Assembly: GCF_037042905.1 (NCBI RefSeq)
Contig: NC_087251.1
Span: forward strand, 27,406,001-27,470,000
DNA: 64,000 bases
Reading direction: 5' to 3'
DNA from: Lytechinus pictus
Taxonomy: Eukaryota
Under the pieces are notes generated by a model that did not search any database, was not told where the DNA came from, and saw only the letters and a list, made by a program, of their open reading frames with translations. A program made the translations under genes and the position numbers. The first letter of the stretch is position 1. Each line of letters begins with the position of its first letter. This document shows, piece by piece, positions 6,205 through 46,894 of this stretch.

Positions 6205-6342
6205 ATTGGGTAACTTTGAGAAGGGTGATGACTACAAGAAAACATGGAAAGGAAATGACGATGGCAAGGTCAACTCTCACCAGCCAATGAGAGTGGAGGA
6301 TGATCGTGACGGTATGGCAGGCAACCAAACCATGATTACAAG
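6205..6342 (+). CDS. SNAP25: SNAP-25 internal exon (linker between the two SNARE motifs); upstream exons lie outside the window
   Basis: ttttcag| acceptor and |gtaaat donor, phase 2/2. Encodes LGNFEKGDDYKKTWKGNDDGKVNSHQPMRVEDDRDGMAGNQTMITR, which aligns with the SNAP-25 linker (cf. vertebrate [26 protein letters not shown]). Confidence 0.93.
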
Positions 6343-13178: not shown

Positions 13179-13397
13179 TCAGATTTTGGTCCTTTGAGGG
13201 ATACGCTCTGGTATTTAACAGGCAATTGATGCAGACCAAAATAAGCATTTTTAATGTATCGCTATTAAAAACACTGTATGTAGATGATAATGAAAAATAT
13301 ATCTGTGAAGCACTAGAAAATCAGAATATCATTCTATTTGATTAGGTGCAATAGGACAATTAACCGTTTTATCTGTTTGGACGTCATGTTTCTTTAG

Positions 13398-13542
13398 AAT
13401 AACAAACGATGCTCGCGAGGATGAGATGGACGAGAACTTGACCCAGGTAAGCGGCATTGTGGGTAATCTACGTCACATGGCCATCGACATGCAGAGTGAG
13501 ATCGGAGCCCAGAATCAACAGGTGGAACGCATCACCAGTAAG
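13398..13542 (+). CDS. SNAP25: SNAP-25 exon encoding most of the second (Qc) SNARE motif
   Basis: tctttag| acceptor and |gtaaga donor, 145 nt, phase 2/0, in frame with 6205-6342. Encodes [48 protein letters not shown]. Confidence 0.97.
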
Positions 13543-16500
13543 GTAAGATACAAGCTCCGTTATAACTATGCCATCATTCCTAGCTCTCATACTGCATCCT
13601 CCATACGTACTATATTAAGTTGTGGCTTCACAATGAAATTGGTAGGTTTTGGATGCATCTTTGCCCGCAGGCGCACATCAGCAGATATTTTTGCAAATAA
13701 AAACTATTAAAAATTTGTCCAAGTATTGAGAGTCAATGCAATCAAAACAGGCCATACCCCATTCGTTATTGCTATCTTTCATAAAAGCAAGCGCATGTGT
13801 AATTTTTTCACACCATATTTTTTGTTGTTGCTTAATTGATATGCGGCAAAGCAAACATGTTTTAGTTGCAAAATACCATGTGGATTTATTTTTCTTTCCT
13901 GAATTTAAAGCTGGTCGAAAGCATAACATGCACTTTCAAAGCCTTAACAGAAGATTAGGTGGATATATTTAGTTTATTATGACATTATTTATATACTGTC
14001 TCCTAATCTATCATCACCATTTGAAAAGCTCCTTTATATTTTGTCCAGAAATACATTTGCCAAGCATTTCAAAAGCCCTAGGATTCAACATTCCCTTGCT
14101 TTGCACTGAATAGATTATCTTTTATTACTTTTTTGTAATAGTGTGAAAACTAGGTAATGTATATAAATTTTGAAGGGTGTATCATCTGTTTATTTTTCAC
14201 AGTAGATGGTTAATTTACTTTATTAATAATTTCCTGCCAGGCAAATACAATCATCATTTTATGAGTAAAGGTTGCTTCATTATTATTTTTATGTAATGAT
14301 TGTGACCGATTGTATAAAGAAATGTTTGTTTAAAAAATTCTGAATATCTGAAGAAATTGCTAGAAATGTTTTTATCACCCCCCCCCCTTTCCCGATAAAC
14401 CACTGTGAATTATTCTATGTTAGTTGAAATAATGTTGAACTAATGTATGCTATCTAGTGACTCCCATGTCACATATTGATCATATTTCATTCATCAAATA
14501 ATTTTGATTATAAATCATAATCTCATGCACCTCCACTTGCATCACATTGTTTTAATTCACTTTAATTGTCATAATTATTCTTGATTGAATGCTGACATTG
14601 CTTGGAACAGTTGTAGACAGTTAAACATTCTCATTAATTTTTCATATTTGTATACATGTGCTTGAACATACATGCAATACATTCACTTTAAATATCTGTG
14701 TACATTACAATTAAACATTCATATTGCAAATGATCCTGCAGATATTTGGATGCTATTTGACTATTTCTGTTTCCCATTTTAGTTTTCTTATTTTTTGAGA
14801 GATTTATTATCTGAGTAATTGACTATGTCTATTTTAGACAGGTGTAAATCATTCTTTATTGTAGCACTGAAATGAAAAGAATTAGAAAGTAACTGTTTTA
14901 CTCACCATATATGAAAAATAATATAGTATACCATTCTGTATTCTAGTCAGATATAGGCTGATTATGGTTAGAGGGGTCATTTCCAAAAATGATAAGTCAC
15001 TGAATGCTTATCAAAGACCCATGATTTTCAAAAGAAAAAAAAATATATTCCACTTTATTTTTATTTTTTTCATTAGACTTTGGATATTTCCCTTTCCGAG
15101 GTTATTGTATGATTTACAGACACTTTGAATTAAGTGTCCACCTTGAATTTCATCCACACCTATTCCAAATTCCATATATTTCATAGAATATTTTATCAGA
15201 TTGTATGGTATGCAACTGTTGTAAGCAATGCAAATTCTGTTTAGGCTTTGATGTTTTGATTATTTCATATTGCCTGACAATGCACCAGTGACTTAAGCAC
15301 ACTTTTAAGTATCATTTTCTACATCACCCTATGATTGCTTCGCGTTCATATGCATTTTTTAAATTATTAAATATCTAAGTTTGTTATTTGTGTTTAATCT
15401 CTGCTAAAACCATTCAGAGGTTAATGCTTTTTGGATTTTATTTCAAATGTTTTTATCAATTCTTTTTTTTAACTTGTCACCTGAGAAACGTGATGCTTGA
15501 AAAAAATAAAAGTATCTCCAAATTGATCAACAATGTGATAATGCATGGTTAATTTTTTTTGGTTCAGTTAGACTTAACCGATAATTAGTGGATTCATTGA
15601 TAACTGTGTGATTTCTTTGTTTGAAACAGGATTGATAGACATTGTACAATGTTGTTTTTTCTGAAATAAATAATCCAAAAGAAGTGAACTGGTTGTCGTG
15701 TATTGTAATAAAGGATTTTTAATATTTGTAGGGATTTGGTTTATATTTGATACTGATTTTCACAAAATACTATGTCTTTTGAAAAAGCATTTGAGGTGTT
15801 TAGTGAAATCAGCCATGTCAATCCATAGTTATGATTATATATGACCTTCAAACATGACAGAAATGTCACATTGGCCTTCTAACTATTAAGATTAAAAAGA
15901 CTTATTGATGAACATGCATCTCAAATAGCTAGGGTATGAATAATTTTGTGCACATTAGAAAATGTCAACTCAGACGAGAACCTTTAAAAAACTTTGAGAA
16001 ACTTTTGTGACTGACCTGAAAATACAAAATCATTTCTAGTTTAATACATTGTACAGGTCTATCAGCCTGTTGTTTTATAACACCTTATCATGTTTCAAGC
16101 ATGACATCTAAACTTTAGAGAGAGAAAAATGTATGCTTATGTAAAACTGCTAATATTAGAACTTACCACCCACACGGGAGAGAAAAACAAAATAATTTGA
16201 CAATTTCTGTGCGTGCATGATGGATTTTGCGCTATCCCACACACCGACCCAGATGCATTGATCACTTATTCCTTCAAATATCATCTTTGTTTTCCCATGT
16301 GGCTTATTCAAGAAGTTCAGTCTAAGCTTTCCATTGCTACTTCAAAGAAACAGGATGAGAAAGAGCTATGCAGGATTTTGAATTTACACCCACTCACTCC
16401 CCAAAGTGTTTTTGTGCATTTGAAAAATGACATCATATCTATTCCTTGTCCATTACATCAGAGTTAACTAACCATGGAGATAATTTTGAATTTTGTGCAT

Positions 16501-16993
16501 GCCTCTTGATGATAAATCAAATTTCTCATTCAGAATTGTTTTGTTTTCCTGTGAGGGTTAAATTTTATAATGTTGGTTATGGATATCAATTTCACCAAGG
16601 GTACATGTGGTATTTGTAGCATACATATTGTATGGGTCTAACCGTGACCAATTACATATTTAATAATCCATGTCAAGAATTCCATTTCTTAACCATGTTT
16701 TCACCCCTTTTGCATCATGGAGCTATAGCTTTGAATGATCAGTGTTCTATGAAAAATTACACTTTGTCATTCATTGGTTTTTCTTTCTTTCATGATTTTA
16801 ACTCATTCGTTCTTTTTTTCTTTCCATTTGTTTTTTTTATATCTGTTTCTCCCACACCCTACGCTGTACACATGCACACACTCACGCTTGTACATCACAC
16901 GGTTTGCTTGTTAATGTCGTCTTTTCATTCTTTCGTTAACCCATCTTCATCCCCCCCCTCCAAACGTGTTTTTACTTTGTCAAACAACTTTAG

Positions 16994-17056
16994 GGTGACT
17001 CTAACGTGGAGCGCTTGGCTGTAGCTAACAGCCGTGCTAGCAAGCTTCTGAAATAA
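16994..17056 (+). CDS. SNAP25: SNAP-25 alternative terminal exon A (GDSNVERLAVANSRASKLLK*)
   Basis: ctttag| phase-0 acceptor. The peptide aligns without gaps to the SNAP-25 C-terminus (human [22 protein letters not shown]). AATAAA overlaps the stop codon. Confidence 0.85.
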   Translation, partial: GDSNVERLAVANSRASKLLK

Positions 17057-17916
17057 ACCCTTACATGGATTGCTATGCGTGGGGATGGAGTTGCACACCA
17101 CACCCAGTGGAATCATCCAAGATTAATAAAAGATTAACCATCAAAAGCAGTTCATACATTTTTATTTGATTTTAGTTATCCATCAGGAATACTACAACTG
17201 CAATGAAAATAGTTTGGAGTACTTTTTTTCTCTCTTGAGAATGACAACACTTAATTCTAAATTTTCTGTATGTTGTTTATCATGAAAGCAATTTACCGTA
17301 CTTGATTATTTCATGAAAGCAAAGTAGTATTTTGCTGGTATCGTATATTTTCTCAAGCACATCAGTCTGAATTTCCCCATTTTTGCCTTCATGCATATGA
17401 ATGGCTCTTTGATATAAACCTGACACAATACAAACATTTTTAGTTTAATAGGCACAAAACACATCATGCTTGGGATCCATCTATTGAATTGTATAGATCC
17501 TAAATGTTTTCAACCGGAACTATATCAGCTATTAATTTTTAAATCCTCCCATTCAAACTTAAAACTCCAACCAAATATCATTGTGAATAAAGTTAACATT
17601 TTTCCCCTGCAATATTTACCGTGTCATTTTTTTTATTGTCAATGAATGAAAGAGACTTCAGTTCGAGAAGCAAGAACACAAATCAATTCAAATTATGTCG
17701 AGCAGCCTTGTAGAATATATAGGCTTAGTAAGATTCAGAAATGATGTAAAATTGCAAAATAACTGTTTTTACATATTTTTCAAAAGAAACCATACAATTT
17801 CAGTATTCTATATTAATAGGGAATGTACTAGCAATCACCATTTTGGGTATTATTTTGTCGCAGAAGATCATACGCAAATTTAAAGGTTAATAATCCATCC
17901 TATATATATCTCTTCT

Positions 17917-18028
17917 GGGCCCTGTTGCATAAAAGTTACTATTATGGTAACTACCATGGTAACGATGATCATCAGCCAATCAAATCCAAGGATGCATAAA
18001 AATGCTAACTTTTATGCAACACTGGCCC
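17917..18028. mobile_element. Short MITE (related to 56642-56800)
   Basis: TIRs gggccctgttgcataaaagtt / aacttttatgcaacactggccc, with an internal taccatggta motif shared with the 56.7 kb copy. Confidence 0.55.
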
Positions 18029-21000
18029 TGGTCCCCTTCCTGAAGTCATAAATTAGTCAACCACAGCTTGTTATAAAATGGGTGTTACCTTTTGAGAGTC
18101 ATTTGGATGAAGCCATGCCTAGAAGACATCTCTCGATATTATTTTAAGCTCACAGAACAAACTTCCCTGCAATAAACCTTTATAAATTATCATTCCATAT
18201 TACTATTTCTCAAGTATCTGTGTGATTCCCCCATTCATGTACCCGTCTTTGGATAGTGGTTTGATAATTGTTTTATCTCACATAGTTTAGTGCGACCCCT
18301 TTGCTTCTCATATAATCTCATATTTAATTGTATTCTATACCTATTTTATATATCATTTTACAGGACATGTCCTTACTTAATCCCAGTGTTCATTTAATAA
18401 TTGTTCTCCAGTTCTCTGTAATCTGGCAAAATGTAAATCTGTCCTTTTGAAAAACTCTATGCAATTTTCTGAATGTTGAATGGATGTTTGAACATAAAGT
18501 GATGGTAATACTGAAATTGCTCCCCCCATTTTGTCTTTTGATGGCATCTAAAATTGTTGCAGATGTAGTACGGTTTTGGAAAGGATTTCTTAGTTGTTTA
18601 ATCATGGTACAGTTGTGTAAAGTTTGTGACCTTATTCTCAAAATTGGCAAAAAAGTTTTGTATTGTTATTGATTATATTGTAACTGGGTTAAAGTGCTTA
18701 TCCATTTATGAAAAAAAAATTGCCACAAAATTTTCCTTACAAGTCTTTTTGAAAGACAATTGAATATTGAATTTTAGAAGTTATAATTTTTTGATAGAAT
18801 TATCCTTTTGTATATTTTATCAGACAGCAGTCTTTTATTTATTGCATCATTGCGTGGAAAATTCAATCAATTTCTGAATATAATTACCAGATATTGTTGG
18901 TTTTTATATGATCCATCATTCCTCCCACCAATTGTTCTTGAAAACATCATGCAACATTTTATATTAAAAGAAAAAGAAACAGTTTGGCCCTTGTTACAAG
19001 CATTTTACAATTGGAAATAGAGCGCCTGAAAAAATGTAGCAGTTTGATAGAGCATTATGAAAATTTTCACACACAAAATTTGTCATGAATTTGTTCATTG
19101 TGTCCTAGGGTATGGCCACATGAATACCTGATAATTAGCAAAAGTGATGAAGTGAAGTAATTACTCCTGGTTCATTGCTGTTTAGAACCAGGCCAATTTA
19201 TAATCATTCCATTAAGACCAAGTAGGTATTCATGTGGACACATAATGTGTTATCATTAGACAATTCCCTGAAAACTTGGGCTGTGGATGATTTTAATGGG
19301 ATATGGTGTCCATAATGCCAAAATTCCCCCAAAAACGAAATTTGATGGAATCACTTCAGGATCTATTACTTGCATGGTCCTAATGAATGCCTAACTTGGT
19401 CTATGTACATATTAAAGTGTAATATATTTATAGGCCTATATGTATAACATTCCACATCAGATTCATATAGACCAATATTTAAACTCCTAAACCTTTCCAT
19501 GGCAAAACCTTGCTATACCCTCCCACTCACTTACACATCTAACTTGATATGATTCATCCTTCCTACTAGCATTTTGTCCGACACCTACTCCATGCATCAG
19601 ACCCACCATATTATTTTTGTCATAGCTGTTAGAGCCATCCACATTCTTTTATTATTCATACCAATTTTTATGAACCTAATTCAGACTTTACCAATCCTTT
19701 CTCTCCATATATCAAATTTCTCACCTCCCATGCATTGCCCCAAGCTAAAAGACATACCCAATCACCTCATCGTTTCATCTTCTTCAAGGGTCTATATATC
19801 GTCCTCATTTCCTTCCTGTTTTCCTCCTTCAAAACAAAGATCCTCATCAAGTTATCCCCCATCCTTTGCCTATTTTAAGAATGGCTCTGCATAATATTTA
19901 GCAAATTCAATAATATTGGCCTGGATTTGGTTCAAACGATTTAACCCAACCGGGGATAGAAGAAAAAAAATAGAGTGAATATCTGCCCACGCATTGAAGG
20001 AGGAAAGCATACAAACAAACTTTGATACAGGGTCATATGAAATGGGGGATTTGTGAATACAAGCAGGGAACTGCTGTCAAGTTTTTCCTCATGAGAAATG
20101 TCCTATTTTGGGAAAACAAGTTATCTATTTGACGGAAGTGATTTGGTGAGAAGCTATATAATGTAGGTGAAAACATTGGAATGCTTACTTCTTAAAAAAA
20201 AGGACAAATTTACATTCTGTTATTGGCTTGAAAGCAATATCAGTTTTGGTTGACATTTTCCTCAGAGAAGTTACTTTACAAAGATTATTATTAAGTTCGT
20301 GATAGAGAATATCATTATCCTCCAAAAGCTTTAACAGTCTTTTATATTATCTGAAAGGAAATGAGATAAAGTTTATCATTGAATGAACCTTCTCGGGACT
20401 CAGAGAGTTGCTCTTAGTATATTGATTGGACATGCTTCCTATTTTCCCCCTTTCGGGTTGTGTTTTTAGGAGTACCATAAAGTGAATGATTATTGGTTAA
20501 CGTAGGATAGCATTATTAGCATACATGAGTGTGAAAATAACTCTTGTGCACAAGACCAGTTTTAAGTACACTGCCATGAATAGGAAGGAACAAACTATAG
20601 CTAGAAACGCTTTTCCTCAAACTTGCCATGATTGTGTATGTATGTTCCATCGTGCTTGCCACGCTTCGTGTGTATCGTCATCCTCCACCTGACAGATGGC
20701 CACTCAGTCTCATGCGACCATAGGGCCAATTATTGGTAAACACCGCCCTCTCTCTCCCCCTCTCCCTCTCCATGTGTATCGTCACCACACCGCAAGCACC
20801 ATGCCTGATATATATTTTTATCCTTTGCCAAAGAAGCGCTTGTACTCAAGCACTGACATTATGGCCTATGATGAAAGCTAAAAGGGCATCGACTCATATT
20901 ACAGTGCTAATTGTTAGCTTTCCTTCAAGGAGGTGCTAACAGTCTGGCATCTTGTTCTTGAAATGTTGGCTATACCACTCTTTTCGGTTTTTTAGAAGTC

Positions 21001-21249
21001 ATTTTTTTTTGGGAAGTTGTCACAAGGGAGTCAACTCCATGGAGTCAATTCTTTGTTGATGTCACCACAAAATCTATGCAATGCAAGTTAAGATTTGGGT
21101 TTGTTCAAGGCTTTGCTTCCTTTATTATCTGGAGTCATGCTGGCCCTGGTCAGACCTGAATTTACTCTTTGCCTGACCAAAACACTTTCACATCCACATT
21201 TTGGCTGGCCAAGAAAGTCTTGATGAAAAAATGATTTCAGTGAATTCTC

Positions 21250-21600
21250 CCCTGATATTAACTTCTTTCATATCGAGATAGGGAATGAAATTCTATGAAC
21301 AGTCACATTCTACCCCCAAATCCCCATTCCACTGCTGTTGATGGCAAGATGTAAAATATTTGCCATCTTCTTTCCTTTCTAATAATAAGAAATAACCCTG
21401 TGACCTGCTCTGGACTGGGTCTGTAATGTTATCACCCAAATTTCCATTAAGTTTTATCTCTTCTATGTACCTTGTGTGAAATCTGAATGAGCATAGTCTA
21501 TAGATTATGTCCCTTGGTCTACTACTTGTATCATCCATTTGCCCTTTAGTATGATCTCTTTCTATGTTATGTCCTTTGAGTATGATATCTCTCCATTTAC
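21250..21600 (-). mobile_element. Possible highly degraded L1/Tx1-type ORF1 remnant
   Basis: Minus-strand translation IERDHTKG...SRPRDIIYRL resembles the LINE ORF1 motif IERAHR...RPRxII. Weak. Confidence 0.3.
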
Positions 21601-22214
21601 CTCTTTTTAAGTTCTGAATAAGCATAGTCTTGAACAATATCATGAATGTATTTGTTGCCCGTAACTCACGTTCACAATGCTTGCATGGATTTCTTGTTAT
21701 TGCATCTACTTTTCACCAATTACTTTGATATTCATGTCAGTTACATTTCAAGTTTATTTCAATTGCTTAGATGCTCTTATGACATTATATGCATGGTAAA
21801 TCTTTTTTATCTGTCAATAATAATCATAATACTAACCACCAAGTCAAGATAATGCCAGCCATAATTACTCAAAATGTTATGTTCTTGTATATTCATTCCA
21901 GTGCAGAAACAATGCTGCAAGTGTAATGCTGTGTAATGATATTTAAACTAACCTTTTCCTTCTTTTAAAGAGAGAACAGTGCGCAGTGTTCATGTTGAAA
22001 TCGTTACCTTTATGTCTATTCATTATGGAATGATTATGTTTGTTTGCCAAACTGATACTTGTGTAACATGCAATATATACTCTTATGTTAACCCTCATGT
22101 TGCTAACTACTTTGTCTACCAATCAAGATGTGCCGTCCCACCAAATAATGTCATGTTCTGTCTTTTTTCCCCTTTCTCTCCTTTTTTACCCTCTGATCTC
22201 ACCCACTCACATAC

Positions 22215-22380
22215 AATCCACACCTTCTTCACATATAACCCCGCCCTCCTGACATATAACCACGCCTTCTTCACATCATTACGCCCTCATAACATAACCA
22301 CGCCTTCGTCACTCATAACCCTGCCCTCCTAACACACCACGCCTTCTTCATACTTAACCCATCATAACCCTACCCCTCAT
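22215..22380 (+). repeat. Degenerate ~20-bp C/A-rich tandem repeat inside the AG-free tract upstream of terminal exon B
   Basis: Repeated cataaccacgccttcttca / ataaccccgccctcct units. Confidence 0.6.
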
Positions 22381-22487
22381 TCTTTATCCATCACTCCCAT
22401 GATGACTGCTCACTTTGCCCCGCCCACCCACCTCCCCGACCTATGACTTCTGACCTTTACCTGTCATGTGACTTCCCCTGTCTGCAG

Positions 22488-22556
22488 GCACGCCTAAATG
22501 ACACCCGCATTGATATCGCGAACAAGCGTGCTACCACAATTCTGCAGAAGAATTGA
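22488..22556 (+). CDS. SNAP25: SNAP-25 alternative terminal exon B (ARLNDTRIDIANKRATTILQKN*)
   Basis: tgtctgcag| phase-0 acceptor. Gap-free alignment to the SNAP-25 C-terminus (TRIDIANKRAT vs human [11 protein letters not shown]). Confidence 0.9.
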   Translation, partial: ARLNDTRIDIANKRATTILQKN

Positions 22557-25500
22557 AAACATTACCACTATGCACTGTCACATGACTTGATCGATCATTG
22601 TCACCTGTTCTCCTACATACACGTATATCTTGTATGTACCAGTCACATGTGCAGTGGTATGTTACCCTTTATGACATGAACATTCATAATCATTCATTCA
22701 TTGTCACTCATACTTTGAACATATTCAGATAAGAGCTATGATAGGTCAGATTCTATGATCATGTTTTTTATGATTAATATGTAAAGTTAGGCAAGGAATA
22801 ATGACAAAACTTTTTTCCTCAACTGAAAATGGGCATGAATTACCAGCTGCATTCAGTTTACAATGTGCAATATTCAAGATATAATATGTTGGGCTGTGCA
22901 TCTAAAAACAATGTGACGACAATTGATCTACATTCCGCTGGTGAATAATATTACATTGATATTAAGAAAAAAACCTGCAATATGTTTGTAAGCTAAAGAA
23001 AAGTAGAAAAAACAGTTAAATTTTTTTTAAATTTAAAACAGTAATAAAGTTAAGCTTGTAATTATGTTATCCTGTCAAATTATTGATTTTTTTTAAATGA
23101 TTAGTGGAATATGAATAAAAAAATCAGGGTATTGTACAACTAGGGTTTGGTTGTCTTCATTCTTTTTAGAATCCGTTTTTGGGGCAAAAAAATGATAATG
23201 AGAAATGCTGTCATTCTTTTTGTTTGCTCAGTGTGTATCTTCTGAATGTAATTACCTGTGTTGGTGCAGCAAAATGCAATATTTATGGAAAATTCCAGCT
23301 GAGAGTTTAACAGTGTAGAATAGGCTATTATATTTATCAATTTGAAGCATGTAGGATTCCGAGGCTGAGCTTTAGTATTAATTGCTATTATCCTTGTGTA
23401 GTTAGCTCAGGAAAGATATAGATATTGTGTATAAATGACTGTCTGCAAAATTTTATTGATTAATTTGCCTAGAAACATATATGTATGATATAATCCTGAA
23501 CTATCTGTTTGTAAATAGGTATATGTAATTGTGTATCCTATATCAATAACTATATTATATGCATATAATATACAATGTGTGTTTGCTTTATATTCATAGC
23601 ATCAACAGATATATATTCTATATTATGAAGTTATGTGCCAATTTCAGTTGGTAGAGGTTTTTTTCAAAGTACTAGGACTTGTGTGTCACATACTAAGTGA
23701 AAAAATGTTTTTATAACGTTTTATTTTTAAGTATGTGTCTTAACTGAATTCTTGCAGGAGAAAATTATTTCTGAAGTTTTAATTAGGATTTTGGGGTTCT
23801 TTCATAGCTTAAAATCATATTTATGATTTGATTCTTAGTACAATATGAATCAAGTTGGATTGATATTTCCACAACTTGTACCAAAAAACAAAAAATAAAA
23901 ATACAGTGCCTGAAGGGCTGGACTTTTGCTTTCAAATTGTAGTGTAAGGTTCTAAAGTAGCTACTTGAAAATCTTTTAAAAGATATGAGTATTTCTAATT
24001 TATTTCAGAAATTTTGTTGTTGTTATATGTTTGGACTCTTTAATGATTGAGCTGTTTGTGAGAGAGAAATGTTTATTGCCAATTTTCTTGTAACTTTGTC
24101 TTGTCAGAATAAATTGGAGATTAAACATTTGGTTAATAGCAAAATTCTTGCACTTGACCTATAATCATTAGTAGATTTAGAATTAAGGAATGTAAATAAT
24201 TCATGTGTGAATTTGCTACATCTGAGTACTATTCAGACAGACTATTTATTTTCCCTGTTTGAAGTAATGCAACAACATCAATTTGTACATAGATTCAATG
24301 AATGAATTTTCTTTCATGAAAGCTCGATTGTGATGTTGCGACATGATTATTTTATTTAATTTGCAATTTTTCAGCATCCTGAGTCTTATTGTACGTTCAC
24401 TGATAATTATTATTAAGTAGTGTTAATTTTGATTAAAATCGTGAATAATTTAGTGTTCTTCCTTGTTTAAATTGATACTGTTTAGCATTTTGTTTGTACT
24501 TTGCTAAATCTTGAATACCACAAAATAAAATACAAAGATTTAAAAGAACTTAAAAGCAAGTCAAAAATAAAAGTAATGAAAACTAAATATTTTGTTTTTA
24601 AATTTGACTTTTGTGCTAATTGTTGAGTGTAGGATAAAGGATGGGGTGTTGTGTGAATTTGTTGGGTCATAGGCTAATGGTTTAAAGAAAGATCAATCCC
24701 AAATTTTATACACAGTGAAACATGGTGTCAAAACTACACCACCGGTGTCTTGAGAACTACACCAGTGTTACATTTAACACACTAGCGTTATAAAATTCTT
24801 TTGTTATTGTATTTGGTATTATGTTCAATTTTTTAAGGTGTGGCGATATTACTCTATCCAACACTGTCCACTTTTCAGAGCGCATAAACTATATCAGAAG
24901 CTAAAAAGTTTTAGCTAGCATTTTAGTTTGATGACAAATTGTCTCATTTGGTGGCAGTGGAACATTTTGACCAGACAAAGGTTTAGAAGAGTGAGCCATT
25001 ATTGTCCCTCTTAATTTGTTTTTCCTGATCAGATCATTGCAAAGAGATTCATGTAGTGATATTTCATTTCCTAAAACACAGAATATTTTGAAATGATAAA
25101 AAATGGCAATGAAGATGCTGTGATATAAATGTGTTCTATACTTTCCTTTGCCTATTTTCTTTTTGATTCTCTGTTAGTGTTTTTTTTCCAAACTAAAATG
25201 TTTTGTATCAAATCAGTATAGAAATCTATAATTTCTTCCTTATTTGATTTTCTTTGAAACTGAGGACTCTTATACATATTCTATGCTTTCTACCGAGTGA
25301 GAAAAAAAATAACTTAACAAAAAATAACCCAACTTAACCAACTTTTTAAACATGGTGAATAGCTTGAACACATCTATGTTGTGAATGGAATGTTTTTTAA
25401 AACCATACCTATTTCATCATGGTTTTATATACCTATCAGAATTTAACAAATGTCCATTCTAATGTCATTGGACAATTCTAACCAGTATTAGAATTGGCAT

Positions 25501-28415
25501 TTTTAAAATCCTGATGTGTAAGTAAAGCTCAATGTTTGATCCAAGCAAACATTCCTAGGGTAAAAAATGTAGATTAAATGTAGCCTGTGGTATTAAAGCA
25601 AATCCCTTTAATTAGGGAGAAATGTTTAAGCCCTCTTCAACGCAGACAAAAGGAAATGCATTTTATCTTCTTGGAGCCCTGAGAATGACGGATAAGTGGA
25701 ACAACTTTACAATATTATCAGTGTTTGATGTTGTAGAAATAGTTTGCTACAGTTTAATCTCACTTATTTTGTTGATTAATGTTTATCTTATTCTTTCTAT
25801 CTTTAGTATGCTCTTTTAAAATATATCCTATGATTTCCTCAACTTTTAGCTTTCTTGTGTTAGTCTATGTCTGGTAGATTTATTTTTTTTAAGAAACTGA
25901 GTGAGTGTAAAAAAACGCTTTGAAAGTTTGTTTGAATAGTATTCAAAATGTTGCCAAAGTTTGTAATTTAATTATGTATTGTTATTAGTCTGATGACATA
26001 TATAATAAAAAATATAACAATACATATGCCAATCTGTCACTTGGCTGTAAATAATCAGTTTGATTTCTGTCAGGAAGCTTGGGGATGTTGCAGTTTACAC
26101 CTATTCATCAAAAAGTGACTTCATCACAGGCATTTCCAGTATTAAATAAAGATTTGATAGCACCAAAAATTAATTTGTCAACGCTTGACATGATGAAACT
26201 TGTTGTATTTACAATCGAAACAAGTTCAAGAAAAACCTGAAAGTGAAGGTATTTTAAAAATGTTTTGAAGTTTGGGTTCATCTATGTGAGCATTCACTCA
26301 TACTCAATCCATTTCCTAGCATGAAATATTTGTTACTTTTTCTGTGAAAAGTTATTTGCATGCAAGCAATATACATGTAAGCCTATTGTCCAAGCAGGAG
26401 CTCATTACTTGTATTGATGTACTATTTTGTGTGTAAGTTAGATCATTGTTTGAATATGTTTTGTCTTGGTTATCTGTAAAGGAATTTCTTTTTTTATCAA
26501 GTGTATCCGTGAACTGTCGTACTTCACTGCACTTTGCAAGTGCTGACAAAATTTAAAGCCATCAGCCAGATGAAGAAATCATGTGCATGTTTACGATCAC
26601 GACCATCAACCCAAACTTTAATACCCCAAGTTTGTACACCGCAGCTTGCCATTCTAATGAGTCTATATTCTGTTATCTTGTCAAATGTCTTTCGCTGATG
26701 AGCTTTCGAGAGCTCAGCACGTCAGAGCGTTTCCGAACTTCAAGCGATTAGTGTGGCATGAAAACCACACCATGTTTCTTTGAGAAGTTTTGCCAAAGCA
26801 TTATTAAAGACAATTTAACAGTTGATTGATAGATCTACTGAAGACCTAGAAAGATTGAACCCTTTCAAGACAAGATCCATTTTTGAGAGTTCATTTGTTC
26901 ACACTTTGTTCTTCAAATTGGCAATGATAAATTTTGTCTTGTTGCTGCGTTATGTAGATGCAATATCTCTTGAAATAAGTTACATGTCTATAGCAAAAAT
27001 TACAATACTTTGAATACTCCAAATTTATTTGAAATTATGGTACCAATATTATAAAAATCAACACAGTCATAGAACAATAACCAATCTTCTATATAAGAGT
27101 AGAAGCTGTTTCCCATTTCCTCTTGTTCCAGACTTTATTATTATTGGGGAGGGGGGGGGGGTCTTTCATTCCATATTTATGTTATCAAACAAGAAATAAT
27201 GGTTAATAAAGGGTTAATATCATCATTTGAATATTTTCCATCCCCTTATGAACCTGTCGACAATCTAATTCTACAATTCACTTAGATTTTGTGTAAAAAC
27301 CTCCCAAGTTTCAGTAGACAATTGATTAGTTTGATAAAACAATGTTTCCCTTAACCTGTATGTGTCTTCATGTTATGTTTGTTCCTTTGAATGTCTGTTC
27401 GTAAATGAATCTTTTTTTTTAATCTTTCTTTAAATCTTTTCCACTCTTCGTTATTGAAAAGATATTATATACCTGTATAAGACAACTACTTTAGGGTGTG
27501 TTTTTTTTTCATTTTAGATCTGAAAATGTCAGTATATAGGTTATTTTATTAATTTGATTGCATTTTTATTTACATTTTTATGGGCTTGTAATTGCTATTC
27601 TGATAAATTTCTGTCACCTACATGACTTAATCACTAAATGTCATGCAAAATGAGCTTAATTATCTCAGTTTGATATTAAAAATACACAGGGAGGGAAATA
27701 TACTGATGAATTAACGTCTTGACTTAACAAATTTTTCCAGGAATTTAAACTTTCTCTCGTCTATACCTGTATCTAGTTTGTTTCATGTATAGTATGATTA
27801 CTCTTGTTAATAGAGTAGTATTCATATTGTGAACATATTTTTGTTTAAAGTTTTTAGAAAAGTTTTTACTTCTCTAATTCCTCCATATTGCTCTCCATAT
27901 TTTCACATTTGACTTTGATTGGTCAAAATTCTTTTCTCTCAAAATTATATTTCTTTTCTTATCTTCTTTTATGTTTCATTTTTGTTTGATCTGTTTGATA
28001 TTGTTCTTTACATAATTTATTTTTATGTACAAAGTTCTTGAGTGGAATTAGATGATAATATTTAACATTTTTTATATTGTCGCAATTTGAAAAGTTGATC
28101 AATTCAACTTTTTCTGGAAACTGTGTAAAAAATGAAAAAAAAAATTGTAGAATAACACATCTGGCAAGCCCCTTTTATGAAAAAACAATGCTCCCTTGAA
28201 ACATTCATACAATCCTTTTGTTTGCTATCTTTTGCTGAATGTATTAAAAATTATTTCCACTTTCGGAAATTGTCTCCTTCATATGATTAATTTTGCCTAA
28301 TTTATTCCCGTTTGCATTTCCAACTGATTACTTAAATTATTGGAAATAGCTGTCATAATGCATGATTAACTCTTGTCTCCCTTTTTTTCTTGGTCATCTT
28401 TCATTTTTTATCCAG

Positions 28416-28484
28416 GCGGAATCCAACGAGCAGAGGATAACCAGCGCCGACAAGAGAGCGAAAAACATCCTTAGAAAGCAGTAA
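28416..28484 (+). CDS. SNAP25: SNAP-25 distal terminal exon C (AESNEQRITSADKRAKNILRKQ*)
   Basis: Strong polypyrimidine tract and tatccag| phase-0 acceptor. Gap-free alignment to the SNAP-25 C-terminus, followed by a long AT-rich putative 3'UTR. Confidence 0.92.
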   Translation, partial: AESNEQRITSADKRAKNILRKQ

Positions 28485-29102
28485 GAGGTCACCTGACTGA
28501 TCACATGATTGAACATTGGAAGTGTGAATGTGTCACCTGACTTGCCAGGGCTTGTCCAGAATGGCAGCCGTCTTAACAAAGACTCGATGAGAGCGGATGA
28601 ACGCAGCAATATCTCTTTTGCAACAAGAAAATAGATGAATAAATTAATAATAAAAACTCGATAGATGCAAACAATAACATAGCTATTTTTTGGAAATGGA
28701 ACTTTGTTTTAAGGAAAGGTTGAGATTTGAAAGGGTTGTGTATCAACTGGCATGGTGATTATTTATTTTTCAAGATACTTGCCTGTGTTAGTTGAATATC
28801 ATTGAATATGATTGTTGTTTGCTTGTAACAAGGGACGTGTTGCTTAAATTTCAGGTACTGCCTCCCCCCCTCTTTTTCTCTGTAACGTCCTCCCATGTAT
28901 TTATCTGTATCTCGCTAATTTTCTGTCTCTTCCTCTATATCTGTGTCATTTATATTTTTTGCTATCTTCTGCCTTGCTTTTCTGTCTCTCATTTACACCA
29001 TCTTTTCTTTCACTTAGACTTTCTTGCTCTCTCTCTCTCTCTTCTATCTGTCTTTTTCCTTTTCTATGTCCCTTCCCCCGAATACTCGACTCTTTTCTTT
29101 AT

Positions 29103-29361
29103 GGTCCGAATTCTGAACTCTGGTCTAAATTAAAGCCTAACAGTACAAATCCACTTTATGAACTAATTTGACACTCAAATTGTACATAATTGTCTTGGAA
29201 TGATAACTGAAGTAGTTTTCTTCATTATGAAAGCAAAAGGAAACGAAATAGTAAACAAGAAATATACAATATAAACAGAATTTTTGAAATTTTGGTTCCC
29301 CATAATTTTAGCACAGAGTTAGACTGTGGTCTAATTTAAACCTGACTTCAGAATACAGTCC
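29103..29361. mobile_element. MITE (same family as 9937-10204)
   Basis: TIRs ggtccgaattctgaactctggt / aaacctgacttcagaatacagtcc. Confidence 0.55.
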
Positions 29362-31018
29362 TTTGTCTCTATCTTACGTTGCTCTATCTGTGGCTTTCAG
29401 ATTTTCTTCTCTGAATGTCTTTCTACCTTTCCCACTCTGTCTCTACTACCCTCCCCCCCCCCCCATTTATAATGTCTATATGCTCTTTTAGATTGTCAGT
29501 CTAAATGTATTCAATATTGTACGTTGATGATATTTAGCAACAAGGTGTGACAGAGATCTATCTATTCTTGGTTCAATAAGCAGAAGATTTGCTTCCATTG
29601 TTCAATATACATAGATATATAAGGCAAGTATATGGATACCATGTCCTTGCTCTCTTTCCTCGAGTCAACCTAGTTGGTTTTATGATATGGCATTGTTGCT
29701 GTATAATGCATTTGATTTATTGGCTCAGAATAAAATAGGTATGTAAAAAAAAACAGCTTCAATTATAATGCTTAGATAATCGACTTTGTATGTTGATGTC
29801 ACATTATTAATGTTGTACCTGTAGTTTTGTCCGTGTAGGTTGTAATCATTCAATCTGCTATGAGATAAGCTGTACTGTAGATTAATTGCCCTCAAAAACT
29901 ATAGAAACCTACCATTCTTTACTAAAAATTGAGGTGGGATAGTATATGAGTCATATCACATTTTCAATCTTTCATTTTGATCCAAGTTTGTTCTATTTTG
30001 TAATTTTAATATTATGTAACATATATAGTTAAACACAATAAGTAGGGTATCATATTGTTTGATTGTTTCATAAAATTTTTTTATGAATAACAAAGTCAAG
30101 AATTTTTGCAAACTTATCCATTCAAATGGCATATATTGATATTGATTGGCTTTTTAGATTTTTTTTTCAATTTTGAATTAGATATTTCCATGTTCTATAA
30201 GTGTTATGTTTTGTTTTGTTTTATAAAATCTAAAATTAATGAACAAGAGAGCCCACAAAAACCAAGAAGTGTGTGACATTGGTTTAGTTGTAATCTTTTT
30301 AAGGTGGGTTTGACAAAGAACCACTCCACTTATTTCTGATTTGAACAAAATATAATCGAATCAGTTTGTTTCTTATAAAATTTACTTGGTGACATCAAAG
30401 ATTTGCAGAGAAAAATCTACTGCCATTTGGTGCTTGTACAGTTTTTTTCCATTTTGTTTTATAAAACAAAATTATATAATTTTACTCTTTTTGACTGTAC
30501 AATTTACATGAATGCATATGGAAATAATTGCAGCTAGATTTCAGGGAAATCCTTATTTCAAACTCTCAGTTGACTACCGATAGTATCATTACAAGTCCTT
30601 TCTACTCTTCTATTTTTAGATGTAAGAATGGATATAATTTTAATCATATTAAGGACCAGCATAATTAAATATATATGGTGAGTTGGTTCTTAGGATATGT
30701 TTCCATACTAAATTGCTATTGAACCCAAAAGTCTTCTGAGTCCTTGTATAGTCTTGACTTATTAAACACAATTTAATTTCAGTATGAGACACATTTTCAA
30801 TAGACCAAAGTCCATGTTTCTCTTGCAAAGGTTCAAAAAGAATAATCCTGTTTAAAATAGAGTATTCAGTAGTCAAAGTTTGAGGAGAGGAGCTAACCAA
30901 TGATTCTGTTCTATACAGAGCCCTCATTTAACTTCCTATCTGAAGGACAGGGTGGTAATCACTAGCTCAACAGAGCTTTAGCACAACCTAGGTTTCATTT
31001 CCCCACCCGACCACAGTG

Positions 31019-31142
31019 TGTTGTATTACTTAAAAAGTTACAATTAACCTGTTGACATCTGGAACCGGGTTATACCTGTACAAAGTCTATGGGAATGACA
31101 GCATTCAGTATTCAACGGGTTAATTGTAACTTTGATGCAACA
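31019..31142. repeat. Short inverted repeat, probable MITE remnant
   Basis: aaagttacaattaacctgttga pairs with tcaacgggttaattgtaacttt. Confidence 0.5.
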
Positions 31143-33970
31143 AGGTCCAATGTTTGGGAATAGAATGGGTATGGTTGTTCATGTCATGGTAATATCTTCT
31201 GTTGATTCTGTAGGCAGTATCAACAAGTAGAAGAAAAGAAAAACAGCAGGATGTTACTCACTTTTGAACCATTTTGATATTTTGTACCACAATCAGAAGA
31301 TTCTCAATGCATAAAAAAATGAACTCAAATCAACATCCCATAGACTGATAAAGAAGATAACATTTCATTGAATCTCAATCTATTTGTTTGGTAGCCGAGT
31401 CATCAAACAACACTGTATCTCAAAATCACTGTTTTTTTATATTATTTTTTATAAAAGATTCCCAATTTGGTCGGCCAACAAGTGCATTTGACAAAATAAC
31501 AACAATAAATAGATTTATAGTATATATTATAACTCCAACATAAGCTTGGATGGAGGAGAGAAATTGCCCATTGATATTCTTGCATGAACCTCTCCCTTTG
31601 TCACAACATGGAGAAGGACTACCTGCTCAGATTTTTGCACAATAGAATAAGTGACCTGGTAGTATAATATTCATATGAAAAGGACTGTTATGGTACATAT
31701 GCTATTTCATATTTATTTAGACAAGGTCTTCCTATTGGACCGTGTTTAAGTGAATTTGGTGAGTCATGTTCGGAGTCAGTTTATTTATCTTTTTGAAAAT
31801 GTCTATGGTCAGCTATTATAATGATTCGGAAGAACAGTTTATATGGCATTCTGTATAATGCAGTAATTTGATGCAAGACTAATACTGAAGCAGTAGTTTC
31901 CAATTTATTATTTGAAATACAGATAAATCACTCTTGAGGGTTGAACAATTTTAGAACTGTTCAAAAGAAATTATGAAAGTAATTTCTTTATATCATGTGT
32001 GCCTGTGTGCTATCCCTGGTCTCTTAACCAAGTAATTACTCAAACACTAATTCACAAGGATTTAGATTAAGTCCATACAGATTTGAATTTAAAGCATCAA
32101 AAGTTGAATTCAAATCCTTTGAGATTTAGAAATGAATATTTAGAATTCAACTTAAATTGTTTGACTGTTTGCTATTCACAGCTGCTCTGGATTTAATTTA
32201 AATCCTTGTAGTTTTGAAGGTAGTTGGGCATTACTGATGAAAGAAAACTTTTATGTTGAACATTCGTATGAAAATTCAAATGTAATGTGATGAATATTGT
32301 ATGATATGAACATTTTATTGAAATTAATACTTTTGACTTATTGGAAGTTAAGTTCTTTATGTAGCTAGAGGAAATTAAGTTTGTTTTCAGGAAGTTGTTT
32401 GTAGTTGCTGTCGTATATGTGCACCATTTGCATTAGGAAAAATCGTCACATGATTTTTTTTTTTTCACGTTTGTTGATAATTTTAATATTCTTATAACGT
32501 GATATCTCTGTAATATACGATGATCTGCCAAATTGCAAACATGTTTTTAAGCTCTGTGGACTTATAGGACAATATTGACTGTAATTCCTTGATATTTTAT
32601 TGAGAAATAGAAGTTAAGATTCAGCATCTACATTTGCATGACTAACGTAAATATGCAGTATACGATGAATGTGGAGTATACTAGTAATTATAACATCTAA
32701 AGCCTCTCTTGTAAACTGCACAATAACATTATTGTTTGAATATGCAAATGTATCATTCCACTTTCTTGAAATGGCCATCTAAAACATCTTTCTTCTTGTA
32801 ATGTATTGCTTAAAGAAAAATCAGTGCCATTTTTCCCCTCCATAATTTTGTATTTTTATATAATTCAAGAGCAAGATAATTCAAGCCCTATATAGCGCAG
32901 TCACATTTCGCCTAGGATGGCCATACTCCAAGTCGAAAGCGGCCGTTTTTACCATCTTTGTACCAGCTTCCTACGTGTGGTTCGTATAGAAATCTGCTGT
33001 TTTCGACTCACCGTGCAGACACCGCAGGGGAAATGTGACTGTCACATTAGATTAATAAATTGTTTATAAAAATGAATTCCTTATTTTTAGATAAATTTAC
33101 CAAAAGAATCTGCTTGTGAATTGTACTAGTAATTTGTTTAAATTTTTTATAAAACATTATTTGTATTTTTTTACATTGTAGCTTGTTAATAATTCATATT
33201 TATTTGTAACCTAACTTTCATCTCATTTCCTTTCCAGTATATACATTTTAGACTCATGTTATTATTTAAAAAGAAACACCCATACCATGTGTTATTACAA
33301 GTATTTTCCCTTCTTTTCATTTATTAGCTTTTGCAAAAAACACATGTTTTTAAACAACCAGAAAAAAAATCAATTAATAGATTTGATTCTTTGTTTTGAC
33401 TTTCTAGTTGAAAAAGATGTCAACTTTTGTTCTTGATTTATTTCAAAATGTTTCATGTAGAGAGATTAAATAAGCAGTGTTGTTCTACATGTAAAAATGT
33501 GCATTGGTGATAACATTTGTATAGAAGAAGGTTATACATAAGATATCTATATATATATTTCATTTGAATTGTGCATATTGTGAATATATATTATACTATG
33601 AAAATGCAATCAATAATTTTGCATTCCCTTAAAAAGTGTTATGGAATTTATTTCTTGAAAATAAATCTGATTAAGCTAATAAGCTTGTACTTAAAGACTT
33701 CTTGCAAACACTTTCGAGTTGTTTTTGTATTGTGAACACTAGTTTAAGTTAGATATGTATATGATTGTTGAAGTGAACTGGAATATGAAATGATTGCAAC
33801 ATAATTTGCTCGACTGTACCCCCCAAAAAAAAATGAGGGACAGCATATTCAGTTTTCGTAACACTTCGTAGGGGGAGAGTGATGATGAATACAAAACATG
33901 AGCAAATTGTGTAACCCCTGATAAAAAAAATAATATTCAGAGTGATTATTATTTTAAATAATAATATATG

Positions 33971-35735: not shown

Positions 35736-36593
35736 GTAAGTCATAATTCGCCGCAAAAATCTATATTTCTGTTATTACATCAACTGCGTCTGTTGACGTT
35801 CATTTTGCCACAATCTCATTATAACTGCAGTTATTTCCGATGAAAAGAAGAGGTATAAATAGATCGGCCGTAGATGGTTGTCATCCCAAGACAAAACTTT
35901 ATCCAGAAAATCTATTTTTTTTTTTTTTACTGCTGATTTATTTCATGACGGAAGACAAAAATTCTTTTCTTAGTGAGGGGATTTTGAGTGTGGTTTGAAG
36001 GAGTTTACAAAACGCCTCTTGATAGTGCCTATGATTTCTTTGCTTGCTCCTGTTTGCTTCTGTACGTCAGGAGTGGTTAGAAGGAAAGTACGCCCACAAC
36101 ATGATGATGATTATAAAATATATCATTTTTCACCTCTTTGGCGTTCATAATTTTCAAAACAGTGATTAGTTGTCTACCGAGAGGCTTGTTAGTAATACTG
36201 CTTACATTAAGCATGTTAAGGATAATATTGAGATTACAAGTAATAGACACTGGTTTTGTTGTTTAATGTCCGTTTTTTGCCCTCTATCTTATATAATGTG
36301 TTAAGTTTGCCTTATGTAAATAAGACGTGTCTGGTTGATTTGGAATGATATTGAAATGACTATAATTATGAGAGTTAACATTTTTAATTAAGACACAAGG
36401 ATTCATTAAAGCTGACATTTCTTTCAGGTTCCATTATTTATTTCACATCAAAATGTGCGTAATGCAGACTGACACTTGTTGCAGCTTTACATAACTCCCC
36501 TTCCCCCCAAAAACCAATATATATATATATATATATAATTTCCTTGAGCTTTTTTTTTGGGGGGGGGGGGGGGAGGTTGCTGTAGATGCTTTA

Positions 36594-39200
36594 GGACGTT
36601 CCACAGTTAAAATGAAGTCCATGTCATTTCACCAAATTTTGCAGAGAGTTACTTTGGTATCTATGCATTGTGAAAATGCAAAAAATAATATAGGTTCATG
36701 TGCTCATTTTTTCTAAGGGTCTTCAAAGTTGCCGTATTAAAATGATATGCAATCTTGCGCAATCAAGAGAATCATGCCTCTCTTAGACCTCACGAATTCA
36801 CCAAATTAGTTTAAATCATCTTTACTCAGTGGATACCGCATCAAACTTCATCAAATTTTCAAGATATATAATAAAGTGTATATCAAAGTAAGAGAAAGTC
36901 TTTTAATTGGTGAAACTATATCTATTTGGAGTCAGCAGCGCCCTCATTTGGCAAGAATGGGGCAAAAACTCGGAAAAAACAAATCTTCAAAGACGTGAAT
37001 CTAAAATTTAAAAAGGTATTTTGTATGCTGCACTTTTTTCAAAATCCATGTCATTTTCATCAAATTCGGCTTAATTGCAGAGGAATGCATATCGAAGGTG
37101 TAGGGAAGTTATAAATATTGGGTCCATGTGCTCGTTTTTTAACTATGAGTGTCCAAAGTGATGCGAGTTGGCATGAAAATGCGCCCAAAACGTGCAAAAG
37201 TTAATACCGTCTAAAATGCGAATGGTTCCGTATAGTTTTGCCCCCAAACATTCAAAATCCATGTCATTTTCATCATACTCTCTAGATTTGGAGAAGAATA
37301 TATTCTGAAGACATTAAAATATTAAAATTATGGGGTCCATGTGCTCGTTTTTAAACTAGTGGTGTCCCAAGTGTTGCAAGTTGGCTTGAAAATCGCCTAA
37401 AAAGCGCCGAAAACATGCAAAAGTCTCTTAATGCCCTCTAAAATTCAAATGGTTCCATATTTCGCTCCTAAACATTCAAAATCCATGTCCGACTTTTTCA
37501 TCGTACTCTCTAGATTTGTAGAGGAATATATTTTAAAGGCATTAAAATATTAAGAGTATGGGGTCCATGTGCTCGTTTTTAAACTATCAATGTCCAAAGT
37601 GTTGCGAGTTGGCTTTAAAATATTGAAATCCACCAAAAATGCGCCGAAAACGTGCAAAAGTCTAATAATACTGTCTAAAATGCGAATGGTTCCGTAGTTT
37701 TGCCCCCAAACATTCAAATCCATGTCATTTTCATCATACTCTCTAGATTTTTAGAAGAATACACTCTGAAGCCGTTAATATATTAAAAATATGGGGTCCA
37801 TGTGTTCGTTTTTAAGTTATCAGTGTCCAAAGTGTTCCGAGTTCGCTTAGAAATCGCCTAGAATGCGCCGAAAACATGCAAAAGTCTCTTAATACCCTCT
37901 AAAATGCAAATGGTTCCATATTTCGCTCCCAAACATTCAAAATCCATGTCAAAAGTCTAATAATACTGTCTAAAATGCGAATGGTTCCGTAGTTTTGCCC
38001 CCAAACATTCAAAATCCGTGTCATTTTCATCATACTCTCTAGATTTGTAGAGGAATATATTCTAAAGCCGTTAAAATATTAAAAACTTGGGGTCCATGTG
38101 CTCGTTATCATATTATCCATGTCTAAATTGTTGCGAGTTGACTTGAAACAGTCTATAATGCATCCAAAACGGGCAAAAGTCTAATACCGTCCAAATGTCT
38201 AAAATATGAATGTTCCTTAGTCCTGCTCCCAAACATTCAAAATCCATGTCATTTTCATCATACTCTCTCGATTTGTAGAGGAATATATTCTGAAAAAGTC
38301 AAGACATTTAAACTATGGGGTCCATGTGCTCGTTTTCAAATTATCAGTGTCCAAAGTATTGCGAGTTGGCTTGAAACAGCCCAAAATGCACCAAAAACAA
38401 GCATAAGTCTGTTAATACCGTCTAAAATGCAAATGGTTCCGTAGTCTTGCTCCCCAACATTTAAAATCCATGTCATTTTCATCATACTTTGCACATAGAT
38501 ACTTTAGCACCTGAATATTCCAAATATGCAAAAATTAACATGGGTCTATGTGCTTTTTTTTTTGCTATTGAGCTTCAAAGTTAATCCAAAATGGATGATG
38601 TTCTTAAGAATTGCGCATCCAAAAGAATTTAGCATTTTTAGACCTCACGAGATCACAGCAATATGAGTTTAAAGCTCTATTACTTAGTCAAAATCCATTA
38701 AAATTTCATCACATTACCTACAGCTGACTAATCACCAGTTCATCCATTGTAGATGAACAGGTGATTGATCAGCTGTAGGTATGAGCTGATTGTTCTCCTT
38801 AGCTGCACTAACTTCAGATCCGATGTGTTATTTTATAAAGCTAAATTAATAAACTGGATTTATTCCATGGACCATTTTTTTAAATTCCTCTACAATTTCA
38901 AAATACTTTACTCTGTAGTGCGGCAAAGTATGACGAATATGACCCCGAGTTCGAATAAAATGTAGAATGGTTTGGAATTTTTTCTCACGATACGAAGCTT
39001 TTCGGCGCGTTTTAGGGGGTTTAGAAAGCACATTTGCTCTCATAAAAGAGCTGATAATTTGAAAACAAGCAAACAAGGACATGAACCCACTTTTTTAAAT
39101 CTTTGCACCTCTAAGGTATACCTTCCTCTCAGTGGCGTACCTAGGATTTTCCACAGGGGGGGGGGGCAAAACCGTCGGAAAAAACGCAAAAAAATTGACA

Positions 39201-39231
<31 letters not shown>

Positions 39232-41831: not shown

Positions 41832-41865
41832 TTAAGAGGTTTAAGAAGATTTTTTTAGCATGAAA

Positions 41866-46567: not shown

Positions 46568-46894
46568 TTCCTCCTCCTCCTGGCACCGCTGACCGTCGAT
46601 CGACCAGCAAACCTCCATTTTCAGATACAAGTAGTAGACAGAACTACACATCTAAATATGGCTCTTCCCCTTCATCTTATTACGGAGACCCGTCGGAGAA
46701 GTACGGACCGCCGTCGACGAGGTACGGATACGCTCCGGGGGCCATGGATGGTGAAAGTCTGGACGGTTTCGATGTAGGGAAAGTGGCGCCGTTATCCATA
46801 TCGGGCAATCTCCCTCCACCAGCTTACAGCGAGCATTCGTTTGCTGTCGGACCCGGTCCGGCTGGACCAGTGGTACTCTACAAACCTGGACGAG
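46568..46894 (+). CDS. Type I membrane protein, coding exon 4: Pro/Ser/Tyr-rich cytoplasmic region with PPxY motif
   Basis: tttttcgaag| acceptor and GAG|gtgggt donor, phase 1/1, GC-rich open frame. Encodes (V)PPPPGTADRRSTSKPPFSD...SGNLPPPAYSEHSFAVGPGPAGPVVLYKPGR. Confidence 0.85.

Follow-up and report, generated by a model that had tools for sequence, protein, structure and literature searches.

Three tandem last exons of a sea urchin SNAP-25 gene encode distinct and conserved C-terminal tails

Why should one SNARE gene carry three versions of its last coding exon, and what would be changed by choosing among them? The question is raised by a 64,000-nucleotide (nt) stretch of the sea urchin Lytechinus pictus (contig NC_087251.1, positions 27,406,001 to 27,470,000; hereafter the window, whose own coordinates are used throughout), which contains on its plus strand the 3′ half of a SNAP-25 gene ending in three tandemly duplicated last coding exons, A, B and C. 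The answer we favour, with a probability of about 0.6, is that these exons provide a tissue-specific choice of Qbc-SNARE tail together with a 3′ untranslated region (3′UTR). As predicted from sequence, all three proteins would assemble into SNARE complexes, and cell type would determine which of them is made.

The gene was identified from the shared penultimate exon (Table 1), which aligns with SNAP-25 chains in the PDB at E ~1e-17 and is 100% identical to the corresponding part of an L. pictus SNAP-25-like protein carrying PF00835. A second SNARE motif, the layer-0 glutamine and high identity to SNAP-25 place it in the SNAP-25 (Qbc-SNARE) family. The first SNARE motif and the palmitoylated cysteine cluster are absent from the window exons examined and are attributed to the protein from matching full-length records. 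Residues were numbered on a rat 206-residue SNAP-25 record (P0227) and PDB alignments, so that residue 1 of each last exon is 185; with the SNARE layer numbering that we assume, each exon encodes layers +3 to +8 plus the free tail of the second helix. A, B and C are homologous tandem copies, each with an AG acceptor upstream, in phase with the donor at 13542 and ending in its own stop, and this is the arrangement of alternative last exons. A fixed-position motif scan of 1777 AG-preceded open reading frames (AG-ORFs; 855 on the plus and 922 on the minus strand) matched these three and no others. When ~42,000 stop-free stretches were scanned with a profile, the three scored 46–53, with the next best below 0. 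Pairwise identities are 27–33 of 60 nt and 7–10 of 20 residues for the exons and 13–16 of 58 nt for their upstream flanks, so the duplications are old.

We then asked which exons are joined to the donor in RNA. Four of 21 listed runs were aligned to 13300–33290: X1, which consists of contigs, and three raw RNA runs, of which about 6% each was used. X1 was taken to be RNA on the strength of its GT..AG joints and its near-zero depth in the intron at 14.0–16.6 kb. The single donor is joined by GT..AG junctions to A (13542 to 16994; depth 29 in X1) and to C (13542 to 28416; depth 87.5 in X1 and 2 + 2 + 2 reads in the three raw runs). The C form is therefore present in all four runs, and its junction is the only one in the raw runs, which have almost no coverage over A and B (zero in the B bin in X19–X21). 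Contigs of X1 continue from A (16992–17930, 18448–21000, 21002–22946 and 23029–24349) at depths of 20–45, one of them spanning the B acceptor unbroken, and depth falls to 0–4 past ~24.6 kb, before C. These contigs, which cannot show where RNAs end, suggest that the A mRNA reads through B and shares its poly(A) signals; because of this read-through, A and B would compete as acceptors under the same signals. Use of C would require that the A/B signals be skipped. Most of the partly matching reads are drawn to short repeats, dispersed elements that lie within the UTRs of A (17915–18030, with inverted arms) and C (29180–29360). A look-alike of a fourth exon copy, noticed by eye at ~28551–28635, was rejected: it lies outside the top 8 plus-strand profile scores, lacks an in-phase acceptor, falls inside the C 3′UTR and shows a 3-nt deletion in 5 of 5 X21 reads.

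Table 1. Features of the SNAP-25 locus in window coordinates
Feature	Position	Strand	Evidence
SNAP-25 linker-coding exon, constitutive (upstream context)	6205..6342	+	translation and splice sites
Shared penultimate exon: second SNARE helix to residue 184, layer-0 Q174, 180-181 R-I pair, phase-0 GT donor	13398..13542	+	
YCAY-rich stretch upstream of A, candidate Nova-type site	16662..16911	+	motif count
Terminal exon A, 20 residues (185-204): S187, V189, L192, K201	16994..17056	+	ORF, gene models, RNA junction, conservation
A-isoform 3′UTR, ~7 kb, containing exon B	17057..24349 (at least to ~24.3 kb)	+	X1 contigs
YCAY cluster directly upstream of B, 23 in 250 nt, candidate splicing silencer	22195..22444	+	motif count
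Terminal exon B, 22 residues: R186, L187, T200, T201	22488..22556	+	ORF, L. pictus and L. variegatus models
AATAAA signals	23043, 23114, 24524, 24566	+	sequence
Terminal exon C, 22 residues: E186, D196, K197, K200, N201, R204	28416..28484	+	ORF, models, RNA junction, conservation
C-isoform 3′UTR	28485..33251 (lower bound; aligned stretch ends before its end)	+	X1 contigs

The three tails are already present in RefSeq models of Lytechinus SNAP-25-like proteins, which represent the same gene and tails by automatic annotation only: L. pictus XP_063958450-452 hold A and B, and L. variegatus XP_041468600-603 hold A, B and C. Compared with L. variegatus, the window encodes identical A and C tails and a B tail that differs at one residue and matches the L. 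pictus tail exactly. No model with a C tail is found among the listed L. pictus RefSeq members, though the C junction occurs in every run aligned. Both S. purpuratus GenBank proteins carry C, and one of the cDNAs is labelled ovarian. For the comparison of tails, 96 named records were hand-picked from 494 proteins so that each distinct tail of a genus was represented once; unnamed records, tails that read through an intron and second paralogues were set aside. More than one tail is found in 9 of 11 echinoderm genera (Lytechinus is split, giving 12 entries) and 2 of 3 hemichordate genera, with three in five echinoderm genera and four in Ptychodera. When echinoderm and hemichordate tails were scored against each other reciprocally, A was recovered in 9/9 cases, C in 14/14 and B in 6/9. 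The asteroid middle tails account for the misses; they score closer to hemichordate A than to B, and their assignment to B depends on the tree and on elimination. In the maximum likelihood (ML) tree, A groups with one oyster tail (support 97/85), B including the asteroid middle tails forms a second group (94/86), and C a third (96/89).

Each class has its own signature. All nine A tails share S187, V189, K201, L202-L203-K204 and a short tail, with L192 as a further marker, and all 14 C tails share S187, D196, K197, K200 and R204, with N, D or E at 201. L187 marks B in the six echinoid, holothuroid and hemichordate tails (6/9 overall); the three asteroid middle tails keep serine. At layer positions 185, 188, 192, 195, 199 and 202 every class has small or hydrophobic residues; the three hemichordate C tails have L188. 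In the alignments, then, the inward-facing layer residues are nearly alike across classes, and the outward-facing and tail residues are class-specific and conserved from echinoderms to hemichordates. Two further tails deserve mention. A second SNAP-25-like protein of sea cucumbers (P0196, P0197, P0294–P0296) has as its only listed tail one of C type (D196, K200, R204), as if the duplicate had become fixed for C. The fourth Ptychodera tail (P0015) and a tail of the nemertean Tubulanus (P0443) share the unusual residues T196, T199 and Q200, which may reflect an old class or convergence.

The junctions and UTR coverage, the recovery of classes across phyla, their grouping in the ML tree, the conserved layers and clusters of the motif YCAY before A and B together favour a regulated choice of tail and 3′UTR. 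Under such a scheme C would be the broad or egg form, consistent with the ovarian-labelled S. purpuratus cDNA and with the absence of any other junction from three RNA runs; A, which combines K201 and a short tail with a 7-kb 3′UTR, would probably be the neural or secretory form; and B, whose use is backed by gene models and conservation, would be a minor form. Switching exons would alter final zippering, membrane-facing charge, binding of C-terminal regulators and the fate of the mRNA. The C-terminus of vertebrate SNAP-25 is described as a regulatory surface in the parts of the literature consulted (10.1101/2022.05.30.494040, PMC9623538, PMC9811660, PMC5170865).

What might direct the choice is suggested by the intron sequences. 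In the 300 nt before the A acceptor there are 13 YCAY motifs (top 2.6% of windows; shuffle p 0.01); the cluster before B, at 24 per 300 nt, is the densest on the plus strand of the window (0.1% of windows; shuffle p 0.004), and C has 6 upstream. Upstream YCAY clusters silence exons, and a Nova-type protein bound before A and B may push splicing toward C. Nova is described as working via YCAY clusters in an excerpt of PMC12445529. We treat Nova control as a lead only. No enrichment of Rbfox, QKI or PTB-type motifs was found in the motif count, and control by RNA docking and selector sequences was rejected, as no convincing donor-acceptor pairing appeared among the 25 longest of 161 inverted-repeat pairs. 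A 25-nt match (80%) upstream of both A (16936–16960) and B (22354–22378), with a branch-point-like TTAAC start and YCAY, may be due to chance.

Several observations weigh against regulated, cell-type-specific use of the three tails. No junction from 13542 to 22488 (B) is listed in the four runs, although contigs drop rare forms; the RNA status of X1 is a guess, and the raw junction reads total 6. The runs carry no tissue label, which leaves a neural A form without direct support, and isoform function was read from sequence and RNA alignment. The YCAY cluster at B is partly a 21–40 nt tandem repeat, the minus strand has a denser cluster that is due to a microsatellite, and the protostome tail copies are not preceded by any excess of YCAY. 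Finally, half-maximal effective concentrations (EC50) for G-beta-gamma of 78 nM with SNAP-23 and 45 nM with SNAP-25 are given in the part of 10.1101/2022.05.30.494040 consulted. Since SNAP-23 has a different extreme C-terminus and yet binds within twofold, differences between tails may have modest effects.

How old the exon array is can be approached from its distribution outside Ambulacraria. Different tails following one and the same penultimate exon were found in 14 of the 24 mollusc genera and in the single nemertean; those of molluscs are of two classes, N188 and L188. When metagenome contigs were scanned, 80 of 122 loci were retained, and in 57 the penultimate exon is followed by a GT donor; 30 of these have at least one tail copy and five have two (L040, L060, L064, L065 and L074), and a spliced contig (L078) has a second copy downstream. 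The maximum score among 9192 minus-strand AG-ORFs, used as a control, was -5.2. The distal copies of L064 and L078 score as C and that of L040 as A (first 20 positions); the best named match of L074 is a crustacean protein. Eight of 25 single-copy genomic contigs extend >4 kb beyond the tail without a second copy, so the array is either not universal or more widely spaced. Only single tails were seen among entries from tunicates (3), vertebrates (6), cnidarians (3), nematodes (2), flatworms (2), annelids (2), arthropods (2) and rotifers (1), in most cases with one record behind each entry, which makes absence weak evidence; amphioxus was unsampled. In L060 (at 11214) and L065 (at 6684) a divergent second copy, conserved between the two contigs, lies ~700 nt past the first. 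In the 14-kb contig L016 (2027–2240) no intron separates the penultimate from the last exon, and its tail is of L188 type; this may be a retrocopy.

Acorn worms (hemichordates) and molluscs share the multi-tail layout, and copy order matches where it can be tested. A last-exon array as old as Bilateria is thus plausible, and we tentatively entertain, at somewhat below even odds, a fuller history in which the protostome-deuterostome ancestor had two or three SNAP-25 last exons: a proximal A-like one, a middle one, and a distal C- or L188-like one with a cnidarian-like tail. Serving as a tissue-specific switch of 3′UTR and of the helix end that completes fusion, these would have been kept in ambulacrarians, molluscs, nemerteans and certain other protostomes; chordates would have collapsed them to one, and vertebrates regained diversity through the SNAP-25/SNAP-23 duplication. 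The competing explanation, to which we give close to an even chance, is that last exons were duplicated independently in Ambulacraria, Spiralia and arthropods, the likeness of distal copies being convergent or ancestral. It is favoured by the ML tree, which joins C to cnidarian tails (96/92) and not to the molluscan L188 class, by the presence of a more C-like L188 tail than its sister in only 8 of 14 genera (paired, first 20 positions), and by the lack of D196 in 16/16 molluscan L188 tails. Approximately unbiased (AU) tests reject neither a single ambulacrarian clade (p 0.33) nor a group of C, the L188 class and cnidarians (p 0.31); with 22 columns, trees and AU tests could not settle exon ancestry. 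Independent origin accords poorly with several shared details. All three hemichordate C tails and all 16 molluscan L tails have L188. R204 is present in every C tail (14/14) and every L tail (16/16) versus 1/24 molluscan N tails, and Q206 in 8/14 C and 15/16 L tails versus 0/24. The L-type copy is distal in L040, L064 and L078, as C is in the urchin, and the distal copy of L064 has D196 and K200. An oyster tail nests in class A, and the proximal copy of L074 is A-like.

A different account of what the exons do was given in an earlier note on this sequence, in which exon choice could toggle phosphorylation by PKC (residue 187), coupling to synaptotagmin (186/193) and inhibition by G-beta-gamma (201). 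Its residue assignments hold under the rat-anchored numbering: in A, B and C, respectively, 187 is S, L and S; 186/193 are D/A, R/D and E/T; 197-198 are S-R, K-R and K-R; and 201 is K, T and N, so that K201 is kept only in A, and the shared exon contains the R-I pair that corresponds to 180-181. The importance of these positions in mammals is indicated by the available parts of several sources: R198 and K201 are among the G-beta-gamma-binding residues (10.1101/2022.05.30.494040), D186/D193 are implicated in synaptotagmin binding (PMC9623538, PMC9811660), and S187 phosphomimetics change syntaxin binding (PMC5170865). We nevertheless consider the account unlikely. Conservation among orthologues, which the note had proposed as a test, bears out K201 and, outside asteroids, L187, but not the synaptotagmin pair: acidic 186 occurs in 2/9 A, 2/9 B-type and 12/14 C tails and acidic 193 in 1/9, 3/9 and 1/14, and no window exon carries D186 and D193 together. 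That binding mode may in any case be favoured by assay geometry, according to a review passage (PMC9623538, PMC9811660). Position 201 does distinguish classes, being basic in 9/9 A, 0/14 C and 2/9 B-type tails, and R198 and K201 occur together in all nine A tails; R198 occurs without K201 in all 14 C tails and in window exon B. A simple on/off switch of G-beta-gamma is undercut, because from 196 on C is the most basic tail (mean +3.5, versus +2.3 for A).

The serine toggle fares similarly. PKC acts at S187 of vertebrate SNAP-25 and prefers a basic residue at +2 (189). Loss of the serine in B is consistent (L187 in 6/6 non-asteroid tails), but a kept PKC site in A and C is unsupported: serine 187 with basic 189 is found in 0/9 A, 0/6 B and 0/14 C tails, and the only tails with both are the three asteroid middle tails (S187, K189). 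Toxin sensitivity is not a plausible selective reason for the differences. At the 197-198 bond, which with 180-181 we take to be a site of neurotoxin cleavage, Q197 occurs in no ambulacrarian tail, and class A has E in five, S in two and T in two. The note did not single out the clearest class markers, which are D196, K197, K200 and R204 for C and V189, L192 and the short tail for A, and did not remark on the switch of 3′UTR.

That last switch is the basis of a further explanation, in which the tails are nearly interchangeable as proteins and the exons persist mainly for their different 3′UTRs, acting on mRNA localisation, stability or translation. A and C do carry different multi-kb UTRs, and layer residues are conserved; however, a UTR-only role does not predict class residues that are invariant from echinoderms to hemichordates, and A and B have retained different coding signatures although most of one UTR is common to both. 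We regard it as quite improbable. That B is a silent or decaying copy within the A 3′UTR, as its missing junction, the unbroken X1 contig over its acceptor and the zero depth in X19–X21 might suggest, is very improbable given intact B-type tails in Diadema, Apostichopus, Ptychodera and Saccoglossus models and a B-type protein from a Logan assembly (P0298).

Regulated choice of tail and 3′UTR has partial parallels in known systems. Vertebrate exons 5a and 5b of SNAP-25 are internal and change the first helix and cysteine cluster. They too are duplicated homologous exons that substitute within a SNARE helix, a tandem-duplication substitution as described in an excerpt of PMC8373072; unlike them, in the urchin it is the last exon that is triplicated, layers +3 to +8 of the second helix that change, and the 3′UTR that is switched. 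C-terminal substitutions derived from tandem exon duplication, such as GNAO1, likewise involve homologous last exons chosen by alternative 3′ processing (same excerpt, PMC8373072), whereas urchin A and B appear to share poly(A) signals and to compete as acceptors 5.5 kb apart. Vertebrate SNAP-25 and SNAP-23 are also Qbc-SNAREs with different C-terminal tails and, in the data cited above, somewhat different G-beta-gamma binding. They are separate genes, the urchin tails are exons of one gene, and no urchin tail has been shown to be orthologous to either; by splicing, one gene would achieve what vertebrates do with two.

Elsewhere in the window, a large element at ~36500–41850 has inverted outer arms and internal tandem subrepeats (judged by eye) and resembles a foldback transposon. 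Related repeat pairs at 46778–47881/52501–53143 and 12148–12755/60113–60610 contain low-complexity ORFs and are probably transposon remnants, not genes.

A literature search found nothing on alternative last exons of invertebrate SNAP-25; subscription journals were mostly outside its scope, and prior mention is possible. SNARE-cleaving neurotoxins are reported to have inhibited exocytosis in sea urchin embryos, in an abstract that does not distinguish isoforms (PMC2120667). SNARE zippering is completed at the C-terminal end of SNAP-25, on which control by G-protein-coupled receptors (through G-beta-gamma) and by kinases also acts in mammals. To our knowledge, classic studies of exocytosis in sea urchins and molluscs regard SNAP-25 as a single protein; if the tail classes are deployed by tissue, results from egg, embryo and neuron may concern different isoforms. 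The classes also offer a ready set of natural variants with which to ask what surface residues tune fusion. If the array is as old as Bilateria, an ancestral splicing switch, lost in chordates, would join the evolution of the synaptic release machinery, and it would serve as a natural experiment in how neural as against housekeeping exocytosis is tuned by the final SNARE layers.

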